A stretch of 51,982 bases of DNA from Chiloscyllium plagiosum (lineage: Eukaryota): positions 71,846,433 to 71,898,414 of the forward strand of contig NC_057718.1 in the NCBI RefSeq assembly GCF_004010195.1, read 5' to 3'. Numbering within the stretch: position 1 is the first letter of the stretch; the number at the start of each line of letters is the position of its first letter. The position numbers were made by a program, and so were the translations under genes. Shown piece by piece: positions 34,635-49,195 of the stretch. The notes under the pieces were generated by a model. That model made no database searches. It was not told where the DNA came from and saw only the letters and a program-made list of their open reading frames with translations.

Positions 34635-35755
34635 GAAAATTAGGAGGTATGGGATACAGATAAATTTGGCTGTCTGGATACAGAATTGGCTGGCCGAAAG
34701 AAGACAGTAAGTGGTAGTGGATTGAAAGAATTCCACCTGGAGGTTGGTGACCAAGGGTGTCTCGCAGGGATCTGTTTTTGGGCCTCGGCTCTTCGTAGTT
34801 TTTATAAATGACTTGGATGGAGAAGTGGAAGGGTGGGTTAATAAGTTTGTTTATGACGCAGAGGTCAGTGGTGTTGTAGATAGTGTCAATGGCTGTTGCA
34901 GGCTACAACATGACATTGACAGAATGCAGAGCTGGGCTGAAAAGTTGCAGACGGAGTTCAACCTAGATAAATGCGAAGTGATTCATTTTGGAAGGTCAAA
35001 TTTGAAAGCTGAATACATGGTTAAAGACAGGATTCTTGGCAGTGTGGAGGAACAGCAGGATCTTGGGGTCCATATACATAGATCCCTCAAAGTTGCCATC
35101 CAAGTTGATAGGGTTGTTCAGAATGTGTATGGTGTTTTGGTTTTTATTAACATTTGTTTAAGAGCCACGAGGATTGAGTTTAAGAGCCATGAGGTTTTGT
35201 TGCACCTCTATAAAACCCTGGTTAGATCATACTTGGAATATTATGTCCAGTTCTGGTCGCCTCATTATAGGAAGAATTTAGATGCTTTAGAGAAGGTGCA
35301 GAGGAGATCTACCAGGATGCTGAATTGGAGGGCTTGTCTTCTGAACAGAGACTGAGTGAGCTCAGGTTTTACACACTGGAGAGGAGGAGGAACAAGAGGT
35401 GACTTGATAGAGTACATGGTGATGACAGGCTTAGATAGATAGCCAGAGACTTGTCCCCAGGGTAGAAATGGCTGTCATGAGGGGTCATAATTTTAGAGTG
35501 ATTGGAGGAAGGTATCGGGGAGATGTCAGAAGTAGTTTCTTTACACGGAGAGTGGCGGGGGCGTTGAATGCACTGCCAGCGGAAGTAGTAGACACAGAGA
35601 CATTAGGGACATTTAAGTGACTGTTAAACAAGCACATGGACAGCAGTAAATTGAGGGCTGTATAGGTTAGGTTGATCTTAGATTAAGATAAATGCTTGGC
35701 ATGACATGGTGGGCCGAAGGCCCTGTGCTGTGTTATACTGTTCAATGTTCTATAA
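34635..35755 (+). mobile_element. CR1 RT and 3' end
   Basis: ORF 34744..35355 GVSQGSVFGP...YLEYYVQFWSPHY; tail gggccgaaggccctgtgctg. Confidence 0.92.
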
Positions 35756-36499: not shown

Positions 36500-38970
36500 G
36501 TACGAGTACTATAGATGGGTCAGTTTTGTCCAGTGTGTGCAGGAGGGCTTCCTGACACAGTATGTAGACAGGCCAACAAGAGGCGAAGCCACATTAGATT
36601 TGGTACTGGGTAATGAACCCGACCAGGTGTTAGACTTGGAAGTAAGTGAGCACTTTGGTGATAGCGATCACAATTCTGTTATGTTTATTTTAATGATAGA
36701 AAGGGTTAGGTGTATACCACTAGGCGAGAGCTACAGCTGGGGAAAAGGCAATTATGATGCGATTAGGCAAGATTTAGGAAGCATAGGATGGGGAAGGAAA
36801 CTGCAGGGGATGGGCACATTAGAAATGTGGAGCTTATTCAAGGAAAAACTCCTGTGTGTCCTAGATAAGTATGTACCTGTCAGGCAGGGAGGAAGCTGTA
36901 GAGCACAGGAACCGTGGTTTACGAAGGAAGTGGAATCTCTGGTCAAGAGGAAGAAGGCGGCTTATGTTAGGATGAGATGTGAAGGCTCAGTTAGGGAGCT
37001 TGAGGGTTACAAGGTAGCCAGGAAAGACCTGAAGAGAGAGCTCAGAAGAGCCAGGAGGAGACATGAGATGTTGTTGGCGGATAGGATCAGGGTAAACCCT
37101 AAGGCTTTCTGCAGGTATTTAAGGAATAAAAGAATGACAAGAGTAAGATTAGGGCTGAAAATGTGTTGCTGGAAAAGCGCAGCAGGTCAGGCAGCATCCA
37201 TGGAACAGGAGAATCGACGTTTCGGGCATAAGCTCTTCTTCAGGAAGATTAGGGCCAATCAAGGATAGTAGTGGGAAGTTGTGTGTGGAGACAGAGGAGA
37301 TAGGGGAAGCACTTAATGAATATTTTTCGATAGTATTCACTCTAGAAAATGACAATGTTGTTGAGGAGAATACTGAGATCCAGGCTACTAGACTAGGTGT
37401 GATTGAGGTTCACAAGGAAGAGGTATTAGAAATCCTGCAGAGTGAGCCGGATGGGATTTATCCTAGGACCCTCTGGGAAGCCAGAGAGGAGATTGCCGAG
37501 CCTTTAGCATTGATCTTTAAATCGTCATTGTCTACAGGAATAGTGCCAGAAGACTGGAGGACAGCAAATGTGGTTCCCCTGTTCAAGAAGGGAAGTAGAG
37601 ACAACCCAGGTAATTATAGACAAGTGAGCCTTACTTCAGTTGTTGGTAAAGTGTTGGAAAAGGTTATAAGAGATAGGATTTATAATCATCTAGAAAAGAA
37701 TAATTTGATTAGGAATAGTCGGCACAGTTTTGTGAAGGGTAGGTCGTGCCTCACAAACCTTATTGAGTTCTTTGAGAAGGTGACCAAAGAGATAGATGAG
37801 ACTAATCCGGTTGATGTGGTGTATATGGATTTCAGCAAGGCGTTCGATAAGGTAGGCTATTGTACAAAATGCGGAAGAATGGAATTGTGGGAGATATAGC
37901 GGTTGGATCAGTAATTGGCTTGCTGAAAGAAGACAGAGGGTGGTGGTTGATGGGAAATGTTCATCCTGGAGTCCAGTTACCAGTGGTGTACCGCAAGGAT
38001 CGGTGTTGGGACCACTGCTGTTTGTCATTTTTATAAACGACCTGGATGAGGGCGTAGAAGGGTGGGTTAGCAAATTTGCAGATGACACTAAGGTCGGTGG
38101 AGTTGTGGATAGTGATGAATGATGTTGTAGGTTACACAGAGAGACATAGATAAGCTGCATAGCTGGGCTGAGAGGTGGCAAATGGAGTTTAATGCAGACA
38201 AGTATGAGGTGATTCATTTTGATCGGAGTAACCGGAATGCAAAGTACTGGGCTAATGGTAAGATTCTTGGTACTGTAGATGAGCAGAGAGATCTTGGTGT
38301 CCAGGTACACAGATCCTTGAAAGTTGCCACCCAGGTTGACAGGGTTGTTAAGAAGGCATACAGCGTTTTAGTTTTTATTAATAGAGAGATCGAGTTCTGG
38401 AACCATGAGGTTATGCTACAGCTGTACAAAACTCTGGTGCGGCCGCACTTGGAGTATTCTGTACAGTTCTAGTCACCGCATTATAAGAAGGATGTGGAAA
38501 TTTTGGAAAGGGTGCATAGGAGATTTACTAGGATGTTTCCTGGTATGGAGGGAAGGTTTTACGAGGAAAGGCTGAGGGACTTGAGGCTGTTTTCGTTAGA
38601 GAGAAGAAGGTTGAGAGGTGACTTAATAGAGACATATAAGATAATCAGAGGGTTAGAAAGGTTGGACAGGTGGACCCCTTTTCCAAGTACGGTGACATGA
38701 GGATGAGGGAGCACAGCTTTAAATTGAGGGGTGATAGATATAGGACAGATGTCAGAGGTAGTTTCTTTACCCAGAGAGTAGTAAAGGTATGGAATGCTTT
38801 GCCTGCAATGGTAGTAGATCCGCCAACTTAAGTACATTTAAGTCGTCATTGGACAAGCATATGCACGTACATGGAACAGTGTAGGTTAGATGGGCTTCAG
38901 ATTGGTATGACAGGTCAGCGCAACATCGAGGGCCGAAGGGCCTGTACTGTGCTGTAATGTTCTAAGTTCC
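36500..38970 (+). mobile_element. 5'-truncated CR1/HER1 LINE ORF2 and tail
   Basis: [59 protein letters not shown]; tail gggccgaagggcctgtactg. Confidence 0.95.
37156..37244 (-). mobile_element. 89-bp Penelope-tail insertion with 11-bp TSD and intact-looking hammerhead core
   Basis: aagattagggc at 37145-37155 and 37245-37255; minus-strand cCTGAAGAagagcttatgcccGAAACGTCgattc. Confidence 0.9.
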
Positions 38971-39099: not shown

Positions 39100-40815
39100 G
39101 GATATGAGAAACATGGATCATTGATGGACAAAGATACTAGATTGCAGGATTACCATGCTTTTAAAGTAACCCATAACTCCAGTTTTTTCAGTGTCCCCTC
39201 ATGGTCTCATATCCAAACCTGAAAAAGGTCCACAGGGTATCAAAGGTTGTAGGTGTTGCAATTACAGAACATAGTCACAGGTTACTTATCGGCACACCTT
39301 GATTGAAAGGTAGGTTAGTTGGAAGGTTAGTTAACTCCGATAACTTTAAGTCACGCAAAATCTGCTGGCACACCACACTCTTCACTTTCATCCAAGGCCC
39401 CAAACAGTTCAGGTGAGACAGAGATTCACCTACCACTCATCCAACCTAGTTTACTGCATCAGGTGCTCCCAATATGGTCGTTTCTACATCGGGGAGACCA
39501 AACGTAAACTTCGGGAACGTTTTGCCAAGCATCACAGCCGGGCCTGCAGGGGCCGACTGGACCTCCCCGTCACTGTCCATTTTAATTCCCTTTCCTACTC
39601 CCTTTCTGACATAACCATCCTTAGCCTTCTCCACTGCCACAATGAACCACACCGCAAATTGGAGGAACAACACCTCATTTTCTGCCTGGACAGCCTACAG
39701 TCCAGAGGACTCAATATTGAGTTCTCCAATTTTAAATAACTTCCTTCCCATCCCCAACTCTCTTCAATTCCTCCTTGCCACCATCCAAATTAATTCCTCT
39801 CATTGATCAACCAGGTCATACCCTCTATCTGTCTTCACCTATCCCCACTTCATCACCCTGCCCCAGCCACCCGCTTTATCTGCAGCTCCCCCTACACCCA
39901 CCCCCACTCCAGAAGAAGGGTTACACCCGAAACATCAACTTCTCCACTTCCTGATGCTGCCTGGCTTGCTGTGTTCTTCCAGCCTCCTGCCAGTTTATTT
40001 TAGATTCCAGCATCTGCAGTTTTTTTTCTCTCTTTAACCTTATGTCAGGACAAAGTATGTTACAAACCATATACACCCCAGTGGATCTACTGAAAACTGA
40101 GATTCAGATTCTTGAAGGGTGTTGTCAAAGGCATCAAAAAGGCCAAAGGATCTATTATGAAAGGATAAATGAGTTAGGATAGCCGAAAGATGACAAATAC
40201 AATTACAGAAAACAAACTAGCAGAAAGGGAACCTCATCACAGTCTGGCAGAGATAGATTCAGACATAATAGGGGGAATTGCAGATGAACCCTACATGACC
40301 CAAATCTGACTTTACATGCAGATGGACATTCACTAACATTTTTCGACAGGCAGGACTATTGTAGATCACTGGGGGAGACAATGGCAAAACGGGGTTTAGA
40401 GGAAGCTTTTTTAGCCCTGATAGTGCAACTTCATAGGACTGACAGAAGCTTTAAAACTAGCACCGGGAAAGAGAATTAACTTTGACATACACAGCCAAAA
40501 TGCCTACACAATGACATAGAACAAGGGAATGTCACATGAAATATAAGAACATAATTCGAGTAATAGTAGAGGCAACACAATATCCTACAGAAATAGTAGT
40601 TATAAAAATAAGGCATATAGAAAAGTGGAGACAGAAGCAGAATGTAGGAGTATACAAGCAGACATAGTAACCAGAGAGGCACTGGAAACAGTGGTCCATA
40701 GGGCTATTAAAGTGACAACCATTGGTCCAGAAGAGATGAATATCGAAAAATTAAAGGCAGAGGTATGTACAAAGGAAAAACTAAGATGTCGACAGAATGG
40801 AGTGAAAAGAGAATG
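39100..40815 (+). pseudogene. Probable endogenous retrovirus pol relic (RT connection, RNase H), split by a Penelope fragment and possibly continuing after 46130
   Basis: IGLTEALKLAPGKRINFDIHSQNAY; EATQYPTEIVVIKI-AYRKVETEAECRSIQADIVTREA resembles retroviral RNase H (ELIALTEAL..GK.VNIYTDS; GN..AD..AK.A). Confidence 0.6.
39370..40030 (+). mobile_element. Penelope GIY-YIG fragment and tail
   Basis: RQRFTYHSSNLVYCIRCSQYGRFYIGETKRKLRERFAKH...GLNIEFSNFK; decayed core cagaagaagggttacacccgaaac at 39910. Confidence 0.92.
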
Positions 40816-41449
40816 TTGCTGTAGTGATGGAACCCGGTTGGCCTCATTGGCTATGAGGTCACTGATTGGGGTTGTTAACCTGGGCCAATCAGGAAAGCCC
40901 TGGTGACTAAAGTATCCAGGAGATTACGTTAGGGCCGGGGTGTCCTTGGAGAAGGAGCACGCGGTGTCCACCAACACCCTGGAGTTGTTCAGGGAGAGGT
41001 GGGCGCCGCAGGGAGTGGAGTGCATCATTTCTCCCTCCAACTCTATTTTGATTTAGTCCCTACCCTCCCCCTCACTGTTTTTGATCACACAGCACTGTCC
41101 TTTGATGTGAAGGGCAGTGTTTGTCACTGGCCACCCGGGTGTTTTCCTATCTTCCTGGTGGTGGAATTTGAATAAAGATTCGTGCACTTTTGTGTCTTTC
41201 ACTGTGTCTCACACCTGCGCACACACACACACTGGGTGCTAAAAAAAAAAGAAAAAAAAGAGAAAAAAAAAGTATCCAGGAGAATACGTTAGGGCCGGGG
41301 TGTCCTTGGAGAAGGAGCACGCGGTGTTGACCAACACCCTGGCATTGTTCAGGGAGTGGTGGGCGCCGCAGTGAGTGGAGTGCATCATTTCTCCCTCCAA
41401 TTCTATTTTGATTTAGTCCCTACCCTCCCCTTCACTGTTTTGATCACAC

Positions 41450-41567
41450 NNNNNNNNNNNNNNNNNNNNNNNNNNNNNNNNNNNNNNNNNNNNNNNNNNN
41501 NNNNNNNNNNNNNNNNNNNNNNNNNNNNNNNNNNNNNNNNNNNNNNNNNNNNNNNNNNNNNNNNNNN
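41450..41567. other. Assembly gap (118 N)
   Basis: Run of n. Confidence 1.
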
Positions 41568-44062
41568 AAAATAAAGAAAAAAGGAAAAAAAAAATTAAAA
41601 AATGAAAATAAAAAAAGAAAGAAAAAAAAAAGTATCCAGGAGATTACGTTAGGGCCGGGGTGTCCTTGGAGAAGGAGCACGCGGTGTCTACCAACACCCT
41701 GGAGTTGTTCAGGGAGAGGTGGGCGCCGCGGGGAGCCGCAAGCATTATTTCTCCCTCCAACTCTATTTGGATTTAGTCCCTACCCTCCCCTTCACTGTTT
41801 TGATCACACAGCATTGCCCTTTGATGTGAAGGGCAATGTTTGTCACTGGCCACCCAGGTGTTTTCCTATCTTCCTGGTGGTGGAATTTGAATAAAGATTT
41901 GTGCACCTTGTGTCTCTCAACTGTGTCTCACACCTACACACACACACCATGGGTGCTGGGGAAAAATAAGCACTACCGCGGTTAGGCGGTAGTGTGGGGG
42001 TTAAATAAAAAAAAGAAAAAATAAACAGGAGAATTGGGTGGTGGGAAAAAAATAAGCACTACCGCAGTTAGGCGGTAGTGTGGGGGTTAAAAAAGAAGGG
42101 GGAAAAAAAAGGAAAAAAAAAAGAAAAGAAAAATAAATAAACAGGGGATCATCATTTCTCCCTCCAATTCAAAAAAAATAATAAAAAAAAATAAAAAAAA
42201 AAGTATCCAGGAGATTACGTTAGGGCCGGGGTGTCCTTGGAGAAGGAGCACGCGGTGTCGACCAACACCCTGGAGTTGTTCAGGGAGAGGTGGGCGCCGC
42301 AGGGAGTGGAGTGCATTATTTCCACCTCCAACTCTATTTTGATTTAGTCCCTACCCTCCCATTCACACTCACCGCAGTTAGTCGGTAGTGTGGGGGTTTA
42401 ATGAAAGAAAGAAAAAAAAATAATAAACAGGACTGTTGATCACAAAAAAAAGTATCCAGGAGATTACGTTAGGGCCAGGGTGTCCTTGGAGAAGGAGCAC
42501 GCGGTGTCTACCAACACCCTGGAGTTGTTCAGGGAGAGGTGGGCGCCGCGGGGAGTGGAGTGCATTATTTCCACCTCCAACTCTATTTTGATTTAGTCCC
42601 TACCCTCCCCTTTACTGTTTTGATCACACAGCACTGCCTTTGATGTGAAGGGCAGTGTGTGTCACTGGCCACTCGGGTGTTTTACTATCTTCCTGGTGGT
42701 GGAAATTGAATAAAGATTCGTGCACTTTGTGTCTTTCACTGTGTCTCACATGTATACACACACACCATGGGTGCTGGGGGAAAAATAAGCACTACCGCAC
42801 TAAAAAAAGAAAAAGAAAAAAATAAACAGAAGTGTCAGTCCCTACCCTCCCCTTTACTGTTTTGATCACACAGCACTGCCTTTGATGTGAAGGGCAGTGT
42901 TTGTCACTGGCCACCCGGGTGTTTTCCTATCTTCCTGGTGGTAGAATTTGAATAAAGATTCGTGCACTTTGTGTCTTTCACTGTGTCTCACACGAATACA
43001 CACACACTATGGGTGCTGGGGAAAAAAATAAGCACTACCGCACTTAGATGGTAGTGTGGGGGTTAAATTATATAAAAAAATAAACAGGAGTGTCATTTCC
43101 CCCTCCAAAACGATAAACAGAAATGTCAGTCCCTACACTAAAAAAAAAGTATCCAGGAGATGGGCTGGACGCTGCCGCAGGACGTAGCGAGCAGGGCAGC
43201 GGTAGACGTCCGGTACGTGGACACCGCTATCCGACGCCTTAAAACGGCGGTGCTTGGACCCGACGTAGTCCACCAGTTGGAGGACGCTCAGGTGTGCGGT
43301 GGGACCCCGTCCGCACTCACCCCAGCCCCGACGGAATTTCACATTGGCCCCAAGGTCCCGTACTTCCCCCGGGAGCCTGTGCCCCACAACCTGAGCCGCC
43401 TCCGGAATTTTAATTTTGTTACCTTCCAGGGGGTAAAAAGGCGGGCCCTGTATAGATTACTGCTGCACACCGTCCACCTCTTCTCCCTCATCCACCGTCC
43501 GGACGGTGGGAGGGCAGGTCTGAAGACCTCCTCGTGGGTCTGCTCCTGGGCCTGGCCAAACTGGCCATCAACAGGTCGAGGCAGTGGGCCGTGGAGGGGG
43601 TCGTTAGGGCCGACTGCCTGTCCCTCTTCCGCGGTTACGTTACAGCCTGGGTGTCCTTGGAGAAGGAGCACGCAGTGTCCACCAACACCCTGGAGTTGTT
43701 CAGGGAGAGGAGGGCGCCGCAGGGAGTGGAGTGCATCATTTCTCCCTCCAATTCTATTTTGATTTAGTCCCTACCTTCCCCCTCACTGTTTTGATCACAC
43801 AGCACTGCCCTTTGATGTGAAGGGCAGTGTTTGTCACTGGCCACCCGGGTGTTGTCCTATCTTCCCGGTGGTGGAAATTGAATAAAGATTCGTGCACTTT
43901 GTGTCTTTCACTGTGTCTTACTCGTGCACACACACACACCATGGGTGCTGGGGAAAAAATAAGCACTACCGCGGTTAGGCGGTAGTGTGGGGGTTAAAAA
44001 AAAGAGATAAACAGCAATGTTAAAGGCACAGCTAAAGAAAATTAAAAAAAAGTATCCAGGAG

Positions 44063-44980
44063 ATGGGCTGGACGCTGCCGCAGGACATAGCGAGCAGGGC
44101 AGCGGTAGACGTCCGGTACGTGGCCACCGCCATCCGACGCCTTAAAACGGCGGTGCTCGGACCTGACGTAGTGCACCAGTTGGAGGATGCTCAGGTGTGT
44201 GGTGGGATCCCATCCGCGCTCACCCCAGCCCGGACGGTATTTCACATTGCCCCCAAGGTCCCACCACAAGGAGCCAGTGCCCCACAACCTGAGCCGCCTC
44301 CGGAATTTTAATTTTGTTCCCTTCCAGGGGGTAAAAAGGAGGGCCCTATACAGACTGTTGCTGCACACCGTCCACCTCTTCTCCCTCACCCACCGTCTGG
44401 ACACGCCTTGGCGTGCCCATTTGCCACCGGGTGGTGGGGATCTCCAGTGGAGGGCTCTCTACGCGGGAGTCCTCCCCCTTTCTCTCGGGGACCTAGGGTG
44501 GAGGGTGCTGCACGCAGCAGTACCCTGCAACCGCAGATTGCGGTGGTTCACGGACTCCCAGCCCAACTGCTTGTTCTGTGGCGCTGTGGAGTCCGTGGAG
44601 CATGTATATATTGGGTGTGGGCGTTTGCACTCCCTTTTTGATTTTCTGTAAGACCTCCTCCTCTGCTTTTGGTTGCACTTCAGTCCCACGCTCTTGATCT
44701 TTGGGCACCTGGTACGGAGGAGGGAGGGCAGGTCTGAAGACCTCCTCGTGGGTCTGCTCCTGGGCCTGGCCAAACTGGCCATCAACAGGTGCCAGCAGCG
44801 GATGTGGAGGGGGTCGTTAGGGCCGACTGCCTGCCCCTTTTCCGCGGTTACGTTCGGGCCCGGGTGTCCTTGGAGAAGGAGCACGCTGTGTCCACCAACA
44901 CCCTGGAGTTGTTCAGGGAGAGGTGGGCACCGCAGGGAGTGGAGTGCATTATTTCCCCCTCCAACTCTATTTTGATTTAG
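44063..44980 (+). pseudogene. Tx1 ORF2 C-terminal region with CCHC zinc knuckle
   Basis: DLGWRVLHAAVPCN...CLFCGAVESVEHVYIGC; frameshifted, with a stop at ~44650. Confidence 0.92.
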
Positions 44981-45265
44981 TTCCTACCTTCACTGTTTGA
45001 TCACACAGCACTGCCCTTTGATGTGAAGGGCAGTGCTTGTCACTGGCCACCCGGGTGATTCCTATCTTCCTGGTGGTGGAAATTGAATAAAGATTCGTGC
45101 ACCTTGTGTCTCTCACTGTGTCTCACACCTACACACACACACCATGGGTGCTGGGGAAAAATAAGCACTACCACAGTTAGGCGGTAGTGTGAGGGTTAAT
45201 TAAAAAAAAGAAAGAAAAAAGTGTTTGATCACACAGCATTGAGAAAAAAAAAGTATCCAGGAGAT

Positions 45266-46055
45266 AGCCTGGGCAGGTACCAGGACAAGCTGTCCTAGAG
45301 GTGGTCGAAAAGTGTCAGAGCAGCCGAGAGCCAGAAGACGCGTAGGGGCGGGTTGAGTTCCAGAAGGCTTGTGGGCTACCCTGCACGCTGTCGTCCCAGG
45401 GAAGGGGACGGGCTGTCCTAGAGGTGGCCGGAAGGTGTGCCAGGATAGCCCACTGGCCGGATGGCGCATCGGGGTGGGTGAGAGCCCAATGGTACGTAAG
45501 GACAGACCGCGAGCCAGAAGGCGGGTAGCCATCCTCAGCACTGTCACCCTGGGCAGGTACCGAGGCGGGCTGCCCCAGAGGTGGTCGAAAGGTGCTGAGG
45601 GTGGTTAGTGAAGCCGGAAGATGGGTAGGCCGTCCTGACCGCTGTCACCCCGGGTGGATACTGGGGCGGGCTGTCCTAGAGGTGGTCAAAAGGTGAGTCA
45701 GGGCGGACCGAGAACTGGAAGGGGCATGGGGTGGTCCAAGAGCTGGAAGGTACGTAGGGGCGGGCTGCCTTAGAGTGGTGGGAAGGTGGGAGGGAAAGAG
45801 GCTTACTAGGTCTGTATTGTATGCACTTTTTTTATGTAATTGGATTGTCCTTTTATGTACAAATGTCACTGTCACTGTCTTTTATATGTGAAACTGGGAT
45901 TTGAGATTTGTCCTCCTCTCCCTGTAAACTGGTTGAACGGCAGGGTTTGGGGCCTAACTTTGCTGCTCCTCTCCATTGTAAAATTCCTGTTGTATACAGC
46001 TGTAAATGTTAACTATTTTTTGTAAACTGTTTTGTAATTTGTTTAATAAAATATT
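45266..46055 (+). mobile_element. 3' part of a second non-LTR family (GC-rich internal repeats, T-rich 3' end) at the same target
   Basis: Four ggctgtcctagaggtggtc-type repeats; homologous to minus-strand 50680-51200; ends aataaaatatt before gtaaccaggagatg. Confidence 0.7.
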
Positions 46056-46571
46056 GTAACCAGGAGATGCACAAGTTAATAAAGGGTGACTTGGTGACTC
46101 GGGATACCGGCCTCTGTGCAATTATTTCACAATCGTTGCACCACATACAACCGCACGCCAATGTGGTATTGTCACCTGTGAAAATTGGAGGGAGTGTTAA
46201 TTAAGAACTTGATGATTCATAGAAAATGGGTGAGGATCTGCTACTTTTCTAGCATAACTGAGGAGAAAAGTTACCTATGGCATCAATGTTCTTTCTGATT
46301 AAATTACAGTTTAACGCCAGGAGAAATCTGCATTTCAAGGATCAGCCATGAATAAAACAAATATATTTCAATGCTACAGAAGATCGATATTTCCTTGCCA
46401 GCATAAGGAATTTCAAAGATGTTTCTTTTCAACAAAAATAGTAGAATCCTCAACAGGAGTTGCAAAAGACATGATCAACTTATAAATTTTGAAATTAAAT
46501 AGCTGCTTGTTGCTTTGAGAGAAGGTAAACATTCTTTTAATTTTAGATCATAATTTGAAGGAATTTATAAA

Positions 46572-46620: not shown

Positions 46621-47729
46621 AATTGGATAATATGTATAATTAGGATGCTAGTACACTAAAAAAAATGAAGTGGCTTGCATTTTGTACACTCATTTTTACA
46701 GGGTAACAGTTATTGCAAATGTTGTATAACCAGGAGATGAGAACCTCCTCAGATCAGGAGACTTACTTTGAGCTGGCTGGCCACAGCCATCATACTGTGA
46801 GGAGGGAGAAGAAGAGGCATTTTGACATCTGGTTTTCTTTTTTGTTGTTTTTTTTTGTTTGTTTTTGGGTTTCTTTTTTTCTTTTACTGGGCTGTAATCG
46901 GGTGCACGAGCAGGTATTACCATCATTGCTGCTGCTATTGCTCCTGCTGCAGCCTTGGCCTTGCCTACAGCTGAACACTGTTGCTGGTGCCTGTGGCTCA
47001 TCTCAACTGCTGCACTGCCTGAGGCCTGCCTCCACCATGCTGTCTGGGCCCCATCCATACCTGGGACCTGTGCTGTTTGGTGCCTGGAGCCTGCCTCCAC
47101 TGCTACTGCCAGGGACTCACCCAGATTAAGGGGCTGTTGCTGCTGCCTGAGGCCCATTCCCAATGCTGCTACCCGGGGCCCCACCTGGACCTGCTTCTGC
47201 CATTGCTTCTTGGGGCCTACTTCCACTGCTGCTGCCTGGGACTTGCCTTGGGGCCCCTTGGACATGGGATCGCTGCCACTGCTACCTGGAGCCTGTATCC
47301 ACCATTGCTGCATGGGACTTGCCTCTGCCCCCTCCCGAGACCTCCACTGCTGCTACCTGAGGCCTGCCTCCACTGCTGCCTGGGACTTGCCTTGGGCCTC
47401 TACCAAGACCTAAGACCACCACCGCTGCCACCTGAAGCCTGCCTTTACCACTGCTGCCTGAGACTTGCCTCGGGTCTCTCCCGGACAAAAACTGCTGCCT
47501 GAGGCCTGCCTCCACTGCTGCTGCTGCCTGAGGCCCCACCTGGACTTAAGACTGTAGCTGTTTCCTGGGGCCTGCCTCCACCACTGCTGGTTGGGACCGT
47601 GCAACACCAGAGACTGTTGCTGCTGTTGCCTGAGCCATCCACAAGAACATCCAGCAGCACAGCATGGTGAGTCCCAAGACCGCAGGCCCCAGCTGCAACC
47701 CCGACCTCCTTCAGGCACCTGACTGAACA

Positions 47730-48005
47730 TCTGCGGGTTAAGGCCTATCCCTACCTCAATATGACTATTGAGGCCTGCAGTAAGACCATGGCTAGTGTGG
47801 TTAGTCCGCTGGCCATTGTCGCTGCAGCCGGAATGTACGGGAAGGCCGTATTTTTCCTGAAGACCGAGCAGGCAGTGCACCTAACCGTGCAGAAAGGGCT
47901 CACTGTGGGTGGGACTTTCCTCCCCGTCGACGTACTGGAGGTCACAGCCCAGAGAGTTGTGATTTCCAACATCCCGCCCTTCATTACCAATGAGCTCCTT
48001 CGAGT
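47730..48005 (+). pseudogene. Tx1 ORF1 N-terminal remnant
   Basis: ACSKTMASVVSPLAIVAAAGMYGKAVFFLKTE...GLTVGGTFLPV...RVVISNIPPFITNELL. Confidence 0.88.
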
Positions 48006-48079
48006 TTATCCTCCCTTATCCTCCCAGTAAATATATATAGTTTTAACTATATTGGTAGTGGTTGCACAATACTGCTGAC

Positions 48080-49195
48080 ATGAAGACTACTATAGCCAGC
48101 CTCAACATGAATGGCAGCAGGGAGTCGCAGCGCAAATTCCAGACCTTCTTGGTCCTTCAGGACAAGAAGTATGCAGTGTGCTTCCTGTAAGAAACCCACA
48201 CCATCCCGGGAGACAAAGCCATCTTGCTCCTGGAGTGGCAAGGATCTCACCTGCAGATCTGGCAGGCTGGCCATCTGTTGGTCCCACATTTTCAGCCAGA
48301 GATCTTGGGGGTCTGGGAGCCTGCGCCAGGCCGTTTGCTTCACCTGACGGTTCGGCTGGGGGGGTGGGGGGGGGGGCGCGGTGGGGCAGTGCTTCAATTT
48401 GTGAACGTCTCCGCTCCCATAATCAGGCCGAGGCAAAACCACGTCTTTGGAAAAGTGTCTGTTCATCTCGCCTCATTTGACGAAGGCCAGTGCGTTGCCC
48501 TCGGGGGAGATTTTAATTGCATCCTCGAGGACAGGGTCCACAGCAGGGCCCGGTCTGGTTTGGCATCAGGGAGGAGGTTGGGGGATTTGGTCAAGTCCTT
48601 TGACTTGGTGGACAGCTGGCGGAATCTCCATCCTGACTCCATCACATTCACCTTCGTGAGGCCTGGTGTCAGACCCTCCAGAATTGACCGCCTGTAACAT
48701 TTTGAGAGCCTATGCCATGTTCTTTCCAGCAGCCTCCATGCAGCAGGTGCTGTGCAAGGACCATCAGCTGGTGTGGGCAGAAGTCTTTCCGTTCAGCGCC
48801 CAAATCTGGTCTGCATACTGGCACTTTAACAACCTGCTTCTGGAAGACGAGCAGTTCTGGGACTCGTTTCGTCGGTTCTGGGCCGGCTGGAGGAATAAGT
48901 GGGGAAGCTTCCCGTCCCTGAGGCTATGGTGTGACTTGGATAAGGCTCGCATCCTCATTTTCTAACAGGAGTTCGCGAGGGGACCAACGAAGAGGTGGAA
49001 ATCAAGGATTGAGGAGTTGGAGAGGGAAGTGTTTGATCTGGAGTCACGTCTCGGTCAGCCCAATCTGGACCTGGTCCGCCGGGGGTGGGGGGGGGGTGGT
49101 TACGAAGCAAAGAAGGCTACGCTCTGGGACCTGCAGCTCGTCGGGTTCTTAAGTGAGGTCGCGGATCCAGCTCCTCCAGGATCTGGACCGTGGCA
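48080..49195 (+). pseudogene. Tx1 ORF2 APE endonuclease remnant
   Basis: MKTTIASLNMNG, CFL*ETH, LGGDFNC, LVDSWRNLHP, SRIDRL, DHQLV, YWHFNNLLLED. Confidence 0.92.

Follow-up and report, generated by a model that had tools for sequence, protein, structure and literature searches.

Tandem stacking of a Tx1-clade retrotransposon at the putative TATA box of a long terminal repeat family in Chiloscyllium plagiosum

How does one 14-nucleotide motif come to stand eight times, between fragments of retrotransposons, inside a single long terminal repeat (LTR)? The question is raised by positions 40820..46129 of a 51,982-nucleotide stretch of the Chiloscyllium plagiosum genome (contig NC_057718.1, positions 71,846,433 to 71,898,414 of the forward strand), the whole of which is referred to here as the window. 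An earlier note on this DNA had proposed that Tx1 retrotransposons target a TATA-like site of the LTR and stack there in tandem. The interpretation reached here, to which a probability of roughly 0.88 is attached, is that a young, abundant Tx1 long interspersed nuclear element (LINE) inserts sequence-specifically and in one orientation into the TATA-box region of an LTR family older than itself, and that the inserted units stack head to tail. The target site, of about 13 to 17 bp, reads (AT)ATAA(A/C)CAGGAGAT(T) and comprises the putative TATA box together with the nucleotides immediately downstream.

The motif itself is unambiguous. The 14-mer AAGTATCCAGGAGA matches without mismatch, on the + strand, at 40910, 41270, 41630, 42201, 42450, 43147, 44050 and 45251, exactly where the earlier note had placed it, and the variant GTAACCAGGAGAT at 46056-46068 leads, as also described there, into the rest of the LTR, namely GCACAAGTTAATAAAGGG and then the LTR end, TTTCA, at 46129. 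When up to two mismatches to the 14-mer are allowed, the window holds nine matches, compared with a mean of 0.44 in 100 shuffled sequences, none of which reached nine. The 15-mer AAGTATCCAGGAGAT has 17 exact copies in the 3.56-Gb assembly, 7 of which lie in the window array; the base that follows the motif copy at 41270 is A, not T.

The host repeat is the LTR of an LTR retrotransposon or endogenous retrovirus. Each of its halves (5' and 3') gave more than 1,100 first-look candidates in the genome, at 82 to 94% identity (82 to 90% for the 5' part); for LTR and Tx1 queries alike, the genome matches are the best-scoring 40 of 1,146 to 2,755 first-look candidates per query. Uninterrupted copies are about 220 to 240 bp long, run from TGTAGTG to TTTCA and contain the site once; the copy at locus L032, for example, reads CCCTGGCTGACCAATATAACCAGGAGATTAGAATCTCCTCAGG. 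The motif is thus native to the LTR, which bears out the proposal of an LTR target, and the outcome that the earlier note had named as fatal, a 14-mer that belongs to the 5' terminus of the element and is absent from uninterrupted LTRs, was not encountered. A leader resembling a primer-binding site, common to nine loci, follows the LTR end; a purine-rich (polypurine-tract) stretch, common to four loci and L115, precedes the LTR start; and an open reading frame (ORF) upstream of one 3' LTR matches Integrase_H2C2 with 42.5 bits (cut-off, 25.5). Within the LTR, ATATAA starts 14 nt after a 16-nt CCAAT-box match (about 25 nt after CCAAT) and lies about 80 to 90 nt before AATAAA, a position that suggests a TATA box.

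A second LTR was looked for in the window and none was found, and the upstream flank of the window LTR is unrelated DNA that lacks the polypurine region of the family. Because both flanks typical of the family and a partner LTR are absent, the window copy is regarded as a solo LTR. The pentamer GTTGC stands just before this LTR (40815-40819) and again 5 bp past its end (46130-46139, with CAATC between); the pair may be the target duplication of the LTR itself with five extra bases, or it may be due to chance. Right after the last target copy, the window LTR is also short of about 70 bp that other copies contain (TAGAATCTCCTCAG...GTGTACTG); their absence could be a trait of the subfamily or a deletion that accompanied the first insertion.

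The inserts form eight units, and by sequence comparison units 1 to 7 are fragments of a Tx1-clade LINE. All seven match one family, the 3' untranslated region (UTR) of which gave 2,755 first-look candidates; the 40 scored are 92 to 95% identical to unit 7. A long copy of the same family, at L090, shows about 90% DNA identity to units 6 and 7 and 89% protein identity to the ORF fragment of unit 6. Its protein, P0003, begins with an apurinic/apyrimidinic endonuclease (APE)-type domain (Exo_endo_phos, 45.9 bits; cut-off, 24.5) and also contains a reverse transcriptase domain (RVT_1, 126 bits). The reverse transcriptase (RT) region is 63% identical to YTX2_XENLA, the Transposon TX1 149 kDa protein (99% coverage; E value, 3e-182), and 56 to 68% identical to sea-turtle proteins. 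Along its length, the L090 enzyme aligns collinearly with ORF2 of Xenopus Tx1L (53% identity over 809 residues, 803 bits), the endonuclease part being 44% identical to residues 1 to 327 of Xenopus Tx1 ORF2; against the same enzyme, human L1 ORF2p scores 177 bits and R2 scores 72 bits. In the window itself, a zf-RVT match at 44172-44651 has 24.9 bits, below the 27.5 cut-off, and only one match came back when longer proteins related to the window ORF were sought. Poly(A) or A-rich tails, frequent 5' truncation and target-site duplication (TSD) are all present in this family. The assignment of the inserts to Tx1 in the earlier note therefore stands for units 1 to 7; unit 8 belongs to a second poly(A) retroposon family.

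That the LTR site is a preferred landing place is apparent, first, from the LTR side. Twenty-eight loci were picked by likeness to the LTR 5' half only, and they contain 30 LTR copies with a CCAAT-box match. A Tx1 fragment starts at the site in 13 of these copies and the unit-8 family in one, so that 14 of the 30 sampled copies are interrupted at the same base; eight others continue as LTR, four have a duplicated site around small inserts, and four fall outside these classes. The 5' truncation points of Tx1 vary between LTR loci: at five of them (L011, L012, L023, L028 and L035) the element starts after CCAGGAGA, whereas L033 has it start after CCAGGAG and L020 after GATTA. Because the 5' ends differ from locus to locus, these are separate insertion events at one place. 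Tx1 and LTR point the same way in all 22 loci that hold both, extending to the genome the sense orientation that the earlier note had described for the units of the array. The unit-8 family was recovered at this LTR site in L026 as well, and in L019 and L050 its 3' end leads into the motif. In L040, an older, diverged Tx1 (41 to 58% protein identity) occupies the same site of a 5' LTR; the site-targeting habit is thus old.

Conversely, the same site is recovered from the LINE side. Twenty Tx1 3' flanks were taken from the best-scoring copies, and the motif was defined as TAAACAGGAG or TAACCAGGAG, with at most one mismatch, after the tail. It was present in 12 of the 20 flanks, compared with 0 of 20 reversed flanks and 0.3 of 20 in shuffles, and the flanks of Tx1 elsewhere, which the earlier note had allowed might prove random, are hence not so. 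The sequence that comes next is another truncated Tx1 in 11 flanks, the downstream part of the LTR in 5 and neither in 4; with 16 of 20 running into another Tx1 fragment or the rest of the LTR, stacking in tandem is upheld beyond the window. Across 72 tail-preceded sites from 40 loci, conservation extends past the searched 10-mer to about +12 (GGAGATT) and is random beyond, and the upstream T of ATATAA is kept at about half of the sites. From these junctions, the target duplication would measure 13 to 17 bp.

The array combines these features in a single LTR, with all parts on the + strand. The 5' part (U3) of the solo LTR (40820..40909) starts with TGTAGTG and has CCAAT at 40885-40889. The first target copy, AAGTATCCAGGAGAT at 40910..40924, lies in the putative TATA-box region; it carries a GTATCC variant private to the window LTR, and the sequence aligned with it in other LTR copies is ATATAACCAGGAGAT or GTAACCAGGAGA. 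Unit 1 (40925..41269) is a 5'-truncated Tx1 3' end with an A-rich tail; it starts with TACGTT, position 784 of unit 7. Unit 2 (41270..41629) consists of a target copy, the same Tx1 start as in unit 1, a body that contains an assembly gap of 118 N (41450-41567) and an A-rich tail. Unit 3 (41630..42200) has a target copy, Tx1 784-1149 and a tail, followed by two apparently imported sub-units (42019, 42136) headed by ATAAACAGG-type motifs. In unit 4 (42201..42449), the target copy is followed by Tx1 784-927 fused to 1102-1149 through an internal deletion, a tail and one such sub-unit (42422). Unit 5 (42450..43146) comprises a target copy, Tx1 784-1111, a tail and three further sub-units (42821, 43079, 43112), and a 242-bp repeat (1.9 copies, 95% identity) occupies 42595-43044 within it. 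Units 6 and 7 share another 5' start, GGGCTGG. After its target copy, unit 6 (43147..44049) has a longer Tx1 3' part, from which 310 bp are deleted internally, a tail and a last sub-unit (44006); unit 7 (44050..45250) has a target copy, a 1.15-kb Tx1 3' part (the ORF2 C terminus with a candidate zinc-binding motif, and the 3' UTR) and a tail.

Unit 8 (45251..46055, or 45251-46053 in a narrower delimitation) differs in kind: its target copy is followed by a 5'-truncated member of the second family of poly(A) retroposons, inside which lies a 101-bp tandem repeat. A scan of 40500-46300 against Rfam gave no match, and hence no recognized RNA-gene head. The last target copy, GTAACCAGGAGAT (46056..46068), is the unmutated form of the LTR subfamily, for which L011, L012, L023 and L024 read GTAACCAGGAGA. 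The LTR 3' part (46069..46129), with AATAAA at 46078-46083 and TTTCA at its end, closes the array.

Two kinds of site copy can be told apart within the array, and they suggest how it grew. All eight upstream site copies read GTATCC, and the last copy (46056) reads GTAACC, the form of the subfamily to which the window LTR belongs (L011, L012, L023, L024). Recurrence of the private GTATCC form eight times, next to a last copy with GTAACC, shows that the repeated 15-mer arose locally and was not brought in by the elements. The seven motif copies that head the sub-units are of another, common type (ATAAACAG...); each of them, in units 3 to 6, leads into a short Tx1 piece and a tail, and they match the site as it is found in a different LTR subfamily (GATATAAACAGGAGTGTCAGAGG in L068).

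Under the favored interpretation, insertion would proceed by target-primed reverse transcription that starts where the bottom strand is nicked, within the TATA box or at its border, followed by a top-strand cut about 13 to 17 bp downstream. Each insertion would then end up between two copies of the site, both open to new insertion, and, as there are two reusable copies per insertion, units would pile up head to tail. In the window, the unit 8 retroposon was probably the first to enter the solo LTR; the left site copy would then have mutated from GTAACC to GTATCC, after which at least seven further Tx1 units would have been added, each bounded by a GTATCC copy. The ATAAACAG-type motifs inside units must have been carried in with RNA, arrays elsewhere presumably being transcribed across several units and the composite RNAs retrotransposed.

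Several observations weigh against targeted insertion as the complete account. Some Tx1 copies lie outside a recognizable LTR (L089, L116, L081). Of the 10 exact 15-mers outside the window, the 3 examined are all unoccupied and in unrelated DNA; the 15-mer alone may be insufficient, or such sites may be too few to be hit. The LTR and Tx1 samples are small and consist of best-scoring copies rather than random draws. The array spans an assembly gap, and the number of units rests on that gapped assembly. Sequencing runs of the same species contain 0.41 to 0.49 of the sampled words, and those of two other organisms 0.31 to 0.33. An identity matrix and a FastTree tree of the units, with one outside copy that passed the filter, gave no local clade. 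Finally, one and the same 5' junction recurs in units 1 to 5; it is not expected from independent insertion and occurs at 0 of 13 other LTR sites.

Because five of the seven Tx1 units have one junction within the array and none of 13 has it elsewhere, local amplification is needed, and units 1 to 5 were probably amplified locally. Unequal exchange is one possible route; another is that a resident unit was copied again from a transcript that included the upstream site, with the 5' end set by homology. Tail structures differ among units 1 to 5, and these differing tails weigh against plain duplication of whole units.

These considerations bear directly on the strongest of the rival explanations, although it too is improbable: that a single insertion was followed by tandem duplication at the DNA level, through unequal crossing-over or slippage, with the 14-mer simply copied along with the rest of each unit and without any need for site specificity. 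The common start base of units 1 to 5 (TACGTT), with GGGCC common to the first 20 bases, and the other start shared by units 6 and 7 are what such duplication would leave; likewise, the junction CAGGAGAT/TACGTTAG, found 46 times in the genome (41 times outside the window; control count, 0), is often clustered at other loci. Nevertheless, the array contains three classes of 5' junction and two element families, tails and internal deletions both vary in structure among units 1 to 5, and the units, 89 to 98% identical, are no closer to each other than to the copy elsewhere. Moreover, the same site was hit with other truncation points in the 14 of 30 LTR copies described above. Tandem duplication may explain part of the growth of units 1 to 5, not the phenomenon as a whole.

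Lower still stands the possibility that the element has a general, L1-like preference for A/T-rich DNA, such that insertions are drawn to TATA boxes and poly(A) tails with no recognition of CCAGGAG. The bottom-strand nick would indeed fall in the ATATAA stretch or at the border between tail and motif, and some insertions, such as that in L089, are at sites of only partial likeness; yet a 10-mer that includes CAGGAG follows the tail far more often than in shuffles, a single orientation prevails throughout the loci that hold both elements, and the 5' junctions lie no more than a few bases past CCAGGAGA. Least credible of all is the idea that the motif is the 5' or 3' terminus of the element, carried along and like the LTR by chance: ATAAACAGGAG-type motifs do travel inside composite units and the motif does follow most Tx1 3' ends, but uninterrupted LTRs carry the site, LTR sequence runs unbroken into the motif at the first junctions, the eight window copies are the variant private to the window LTR and not the common ATAAAC form, and past about +12 comes either the continuation of the LTR itself or a new truncated unit.

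Sites in other LTR copies also hold short inserts that are not Tx1. Between duplicated sites, 45- to 55-nt A-ended pieces were observed in L017 and L034 and recopied downstream segments of the LTR in L031 and L037; near-empty units that consist of A runs occur in L015. A piece in L077 resembles, by eye, the 3' half of a transfer RNA (tRNA), for which ARAGORN and Rfam gave no match. Such inserts suggest that RNAs of other kinds are also copied into the site by the Tx1 machinery.

The target site raises the further question of whether the element exploits the promoter into which it inserts. An insertion would disable the LTR and could borrow its CCAAT/TATA promoter. In a fuller version, Tx1 would live off the RNA polymerase II (Pol II) promoter of the LTR: inserted in the sense direction some 10 bases downstream of the TATA box, it would have its transcription driven by the CCAAT/TATA region; stacks would give rise to multi-unit read-through RNAs, and the composites would seed new arrays. 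This proposal is considered tentative and rather unlikely. The relevant observations come from the long copies of the element. In all eight long ORF1-bearing copies (L110-L117), a segment that resembles the end of the element's own ORF2 and its 3' UTR stands upstream of the ORF1 leader, with the same fusion point, no tail or target motif and variable truncation; two of the eight, L112 and L115, are stacked directly behind the LTR 5' half. The 3' UTR-like segment may stem from a master copy nested in another copy or from a read-through template. If the promoter were used in this way, the imported ATAAACAG-type motifs and the 3' UTR-like segment in 8 of 8 long copies would be its footprint.

An upstream walk for the 5' end of a full-length Tx1, through L089, L090, L091, L092-L109 and L110-L117, did not reach that end; L089 is truncated and outside an LTR, and L091 is broken by another insertion. 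An LTR-derived 5' head on Tx1, comparable to the small nuclear RNA (snRNA) heads of Keno-type elements, was considered and rejected, the local alignment of leader and LTR being at the level of shuffles.

Other retroelements lie around the array. At 47671-49194 (+), a member of a different, though related, Tx1 subfamily was noted. Over 48010-49194 its DNA is 79% identical to that of L090; 48191-48697 holds its endonuclease ORF, and the preceding end of ORF1 (47671-48030) is unlike that of L090. The region between, 46700-47600, is G+C rich; it includes a 78-bp tandem repeat at 47338-47479, and both of its strands have long open frames that overlap. Similar internal repeats occur in the Tx1 5' region of L108 and L109, and the region may be the 5' region of the neighboring Tx1 copy. 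Upstream of the LTR, ORFs at 34726-35355, 36501-37899 and 39350-39739 derive from other retroelements, with RT-like and endonuclease-like frames; one further frame resembles, by eye, the GIY-YIG motif of Penelope-like elements, and a similar frame interrupts Tx1 in L091.

As it stands, the case is a solid, unsurprising extension of what is known of the Tx1 clade. It provides a well-documented instance from the cartilaginous fishes in which one retroelement serves as the landing pad for a LINE, with about half of the sampled LTR copies occupied. Definition of the site to the base provides a compact natural substrate of about 15 bp for studying how an APE-type endonuclease reads sequence. The arrangement also explains messy composite repeats that annotation pipelines will wrongly list as satellites or as new families. 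Were the LTR promoter shown to be used, the element would furnish a clear case of a retroelement that parasitizes the transcription signals of another.

Many Tx1 lineages are target specific (Kojima 2015, PMC4494074). The same paper reports that some Tx1 families prefer LTR retrotransposons and that tandem insertions sandwiching a TSD were seen, so the suggestion in the earlier note that this target class was undescribed is not sustained. In the literature covered, no shark Tx1 with an LTR target or a TATA-box site was found, and the available part of Kojima 2015 (PMC4494074) is the sole precedent. There, a family is regarded as target specific when more than 20% of its flanks belong to one repeat; here, LTR downstream part or stacked Tx1 makes up the 16 of 20 flanks noted above. 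The family is thus a target-specific Tx1 with a newly defined target site, LTR targeting and stacking being already known for Tx1. Closest in LTR preference are Tx1-8_Crp and Tx1-4_AMi of crocodilians, a different host lineage (PMC4494074); the main text of that paper names no target site and no position within the LTR element.

Closest in manner of insertion are Tx1-Mar and SINEU-3, which target one site of a Mariner family, Mariner-N4_AMi, with a TSD of about 16 bp, and for which tandem copies of SINEU-3 "sandwiching a TSD" are attributed to sequential insertion (PMC4494074). As in the window, a single site of another transposon family is used, and cotranscription from the target is discussed for these elements (PMC4494074). 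Their target, however, is a DNA transposon, and their short interspersed nuclear element partner has an snRNA head, whereas the second family in the window, the poly(A) retroposon of unit 8, has no recognized RNA-gene head. Tx1L of Xenopus laevis (YTX2_XENLA, P0010), the closest named protein, is likewise inserted in another transposon family, Tx1D (PMC4494074), but that target is a piggyBac-type DNA transposon and not an LTR. R2 is cited in Kojima 2015 (PMC4494074) as a LINE that is transcribed from the flanking sequence of its target. Like the present family, Keno, Kibi, Koshi and R2 land in multicopy, dispensable sequence; their targets are RNA genes or microsatellites, whereas that of the window family appears to be the Pol II core-promoter region of an LTR.

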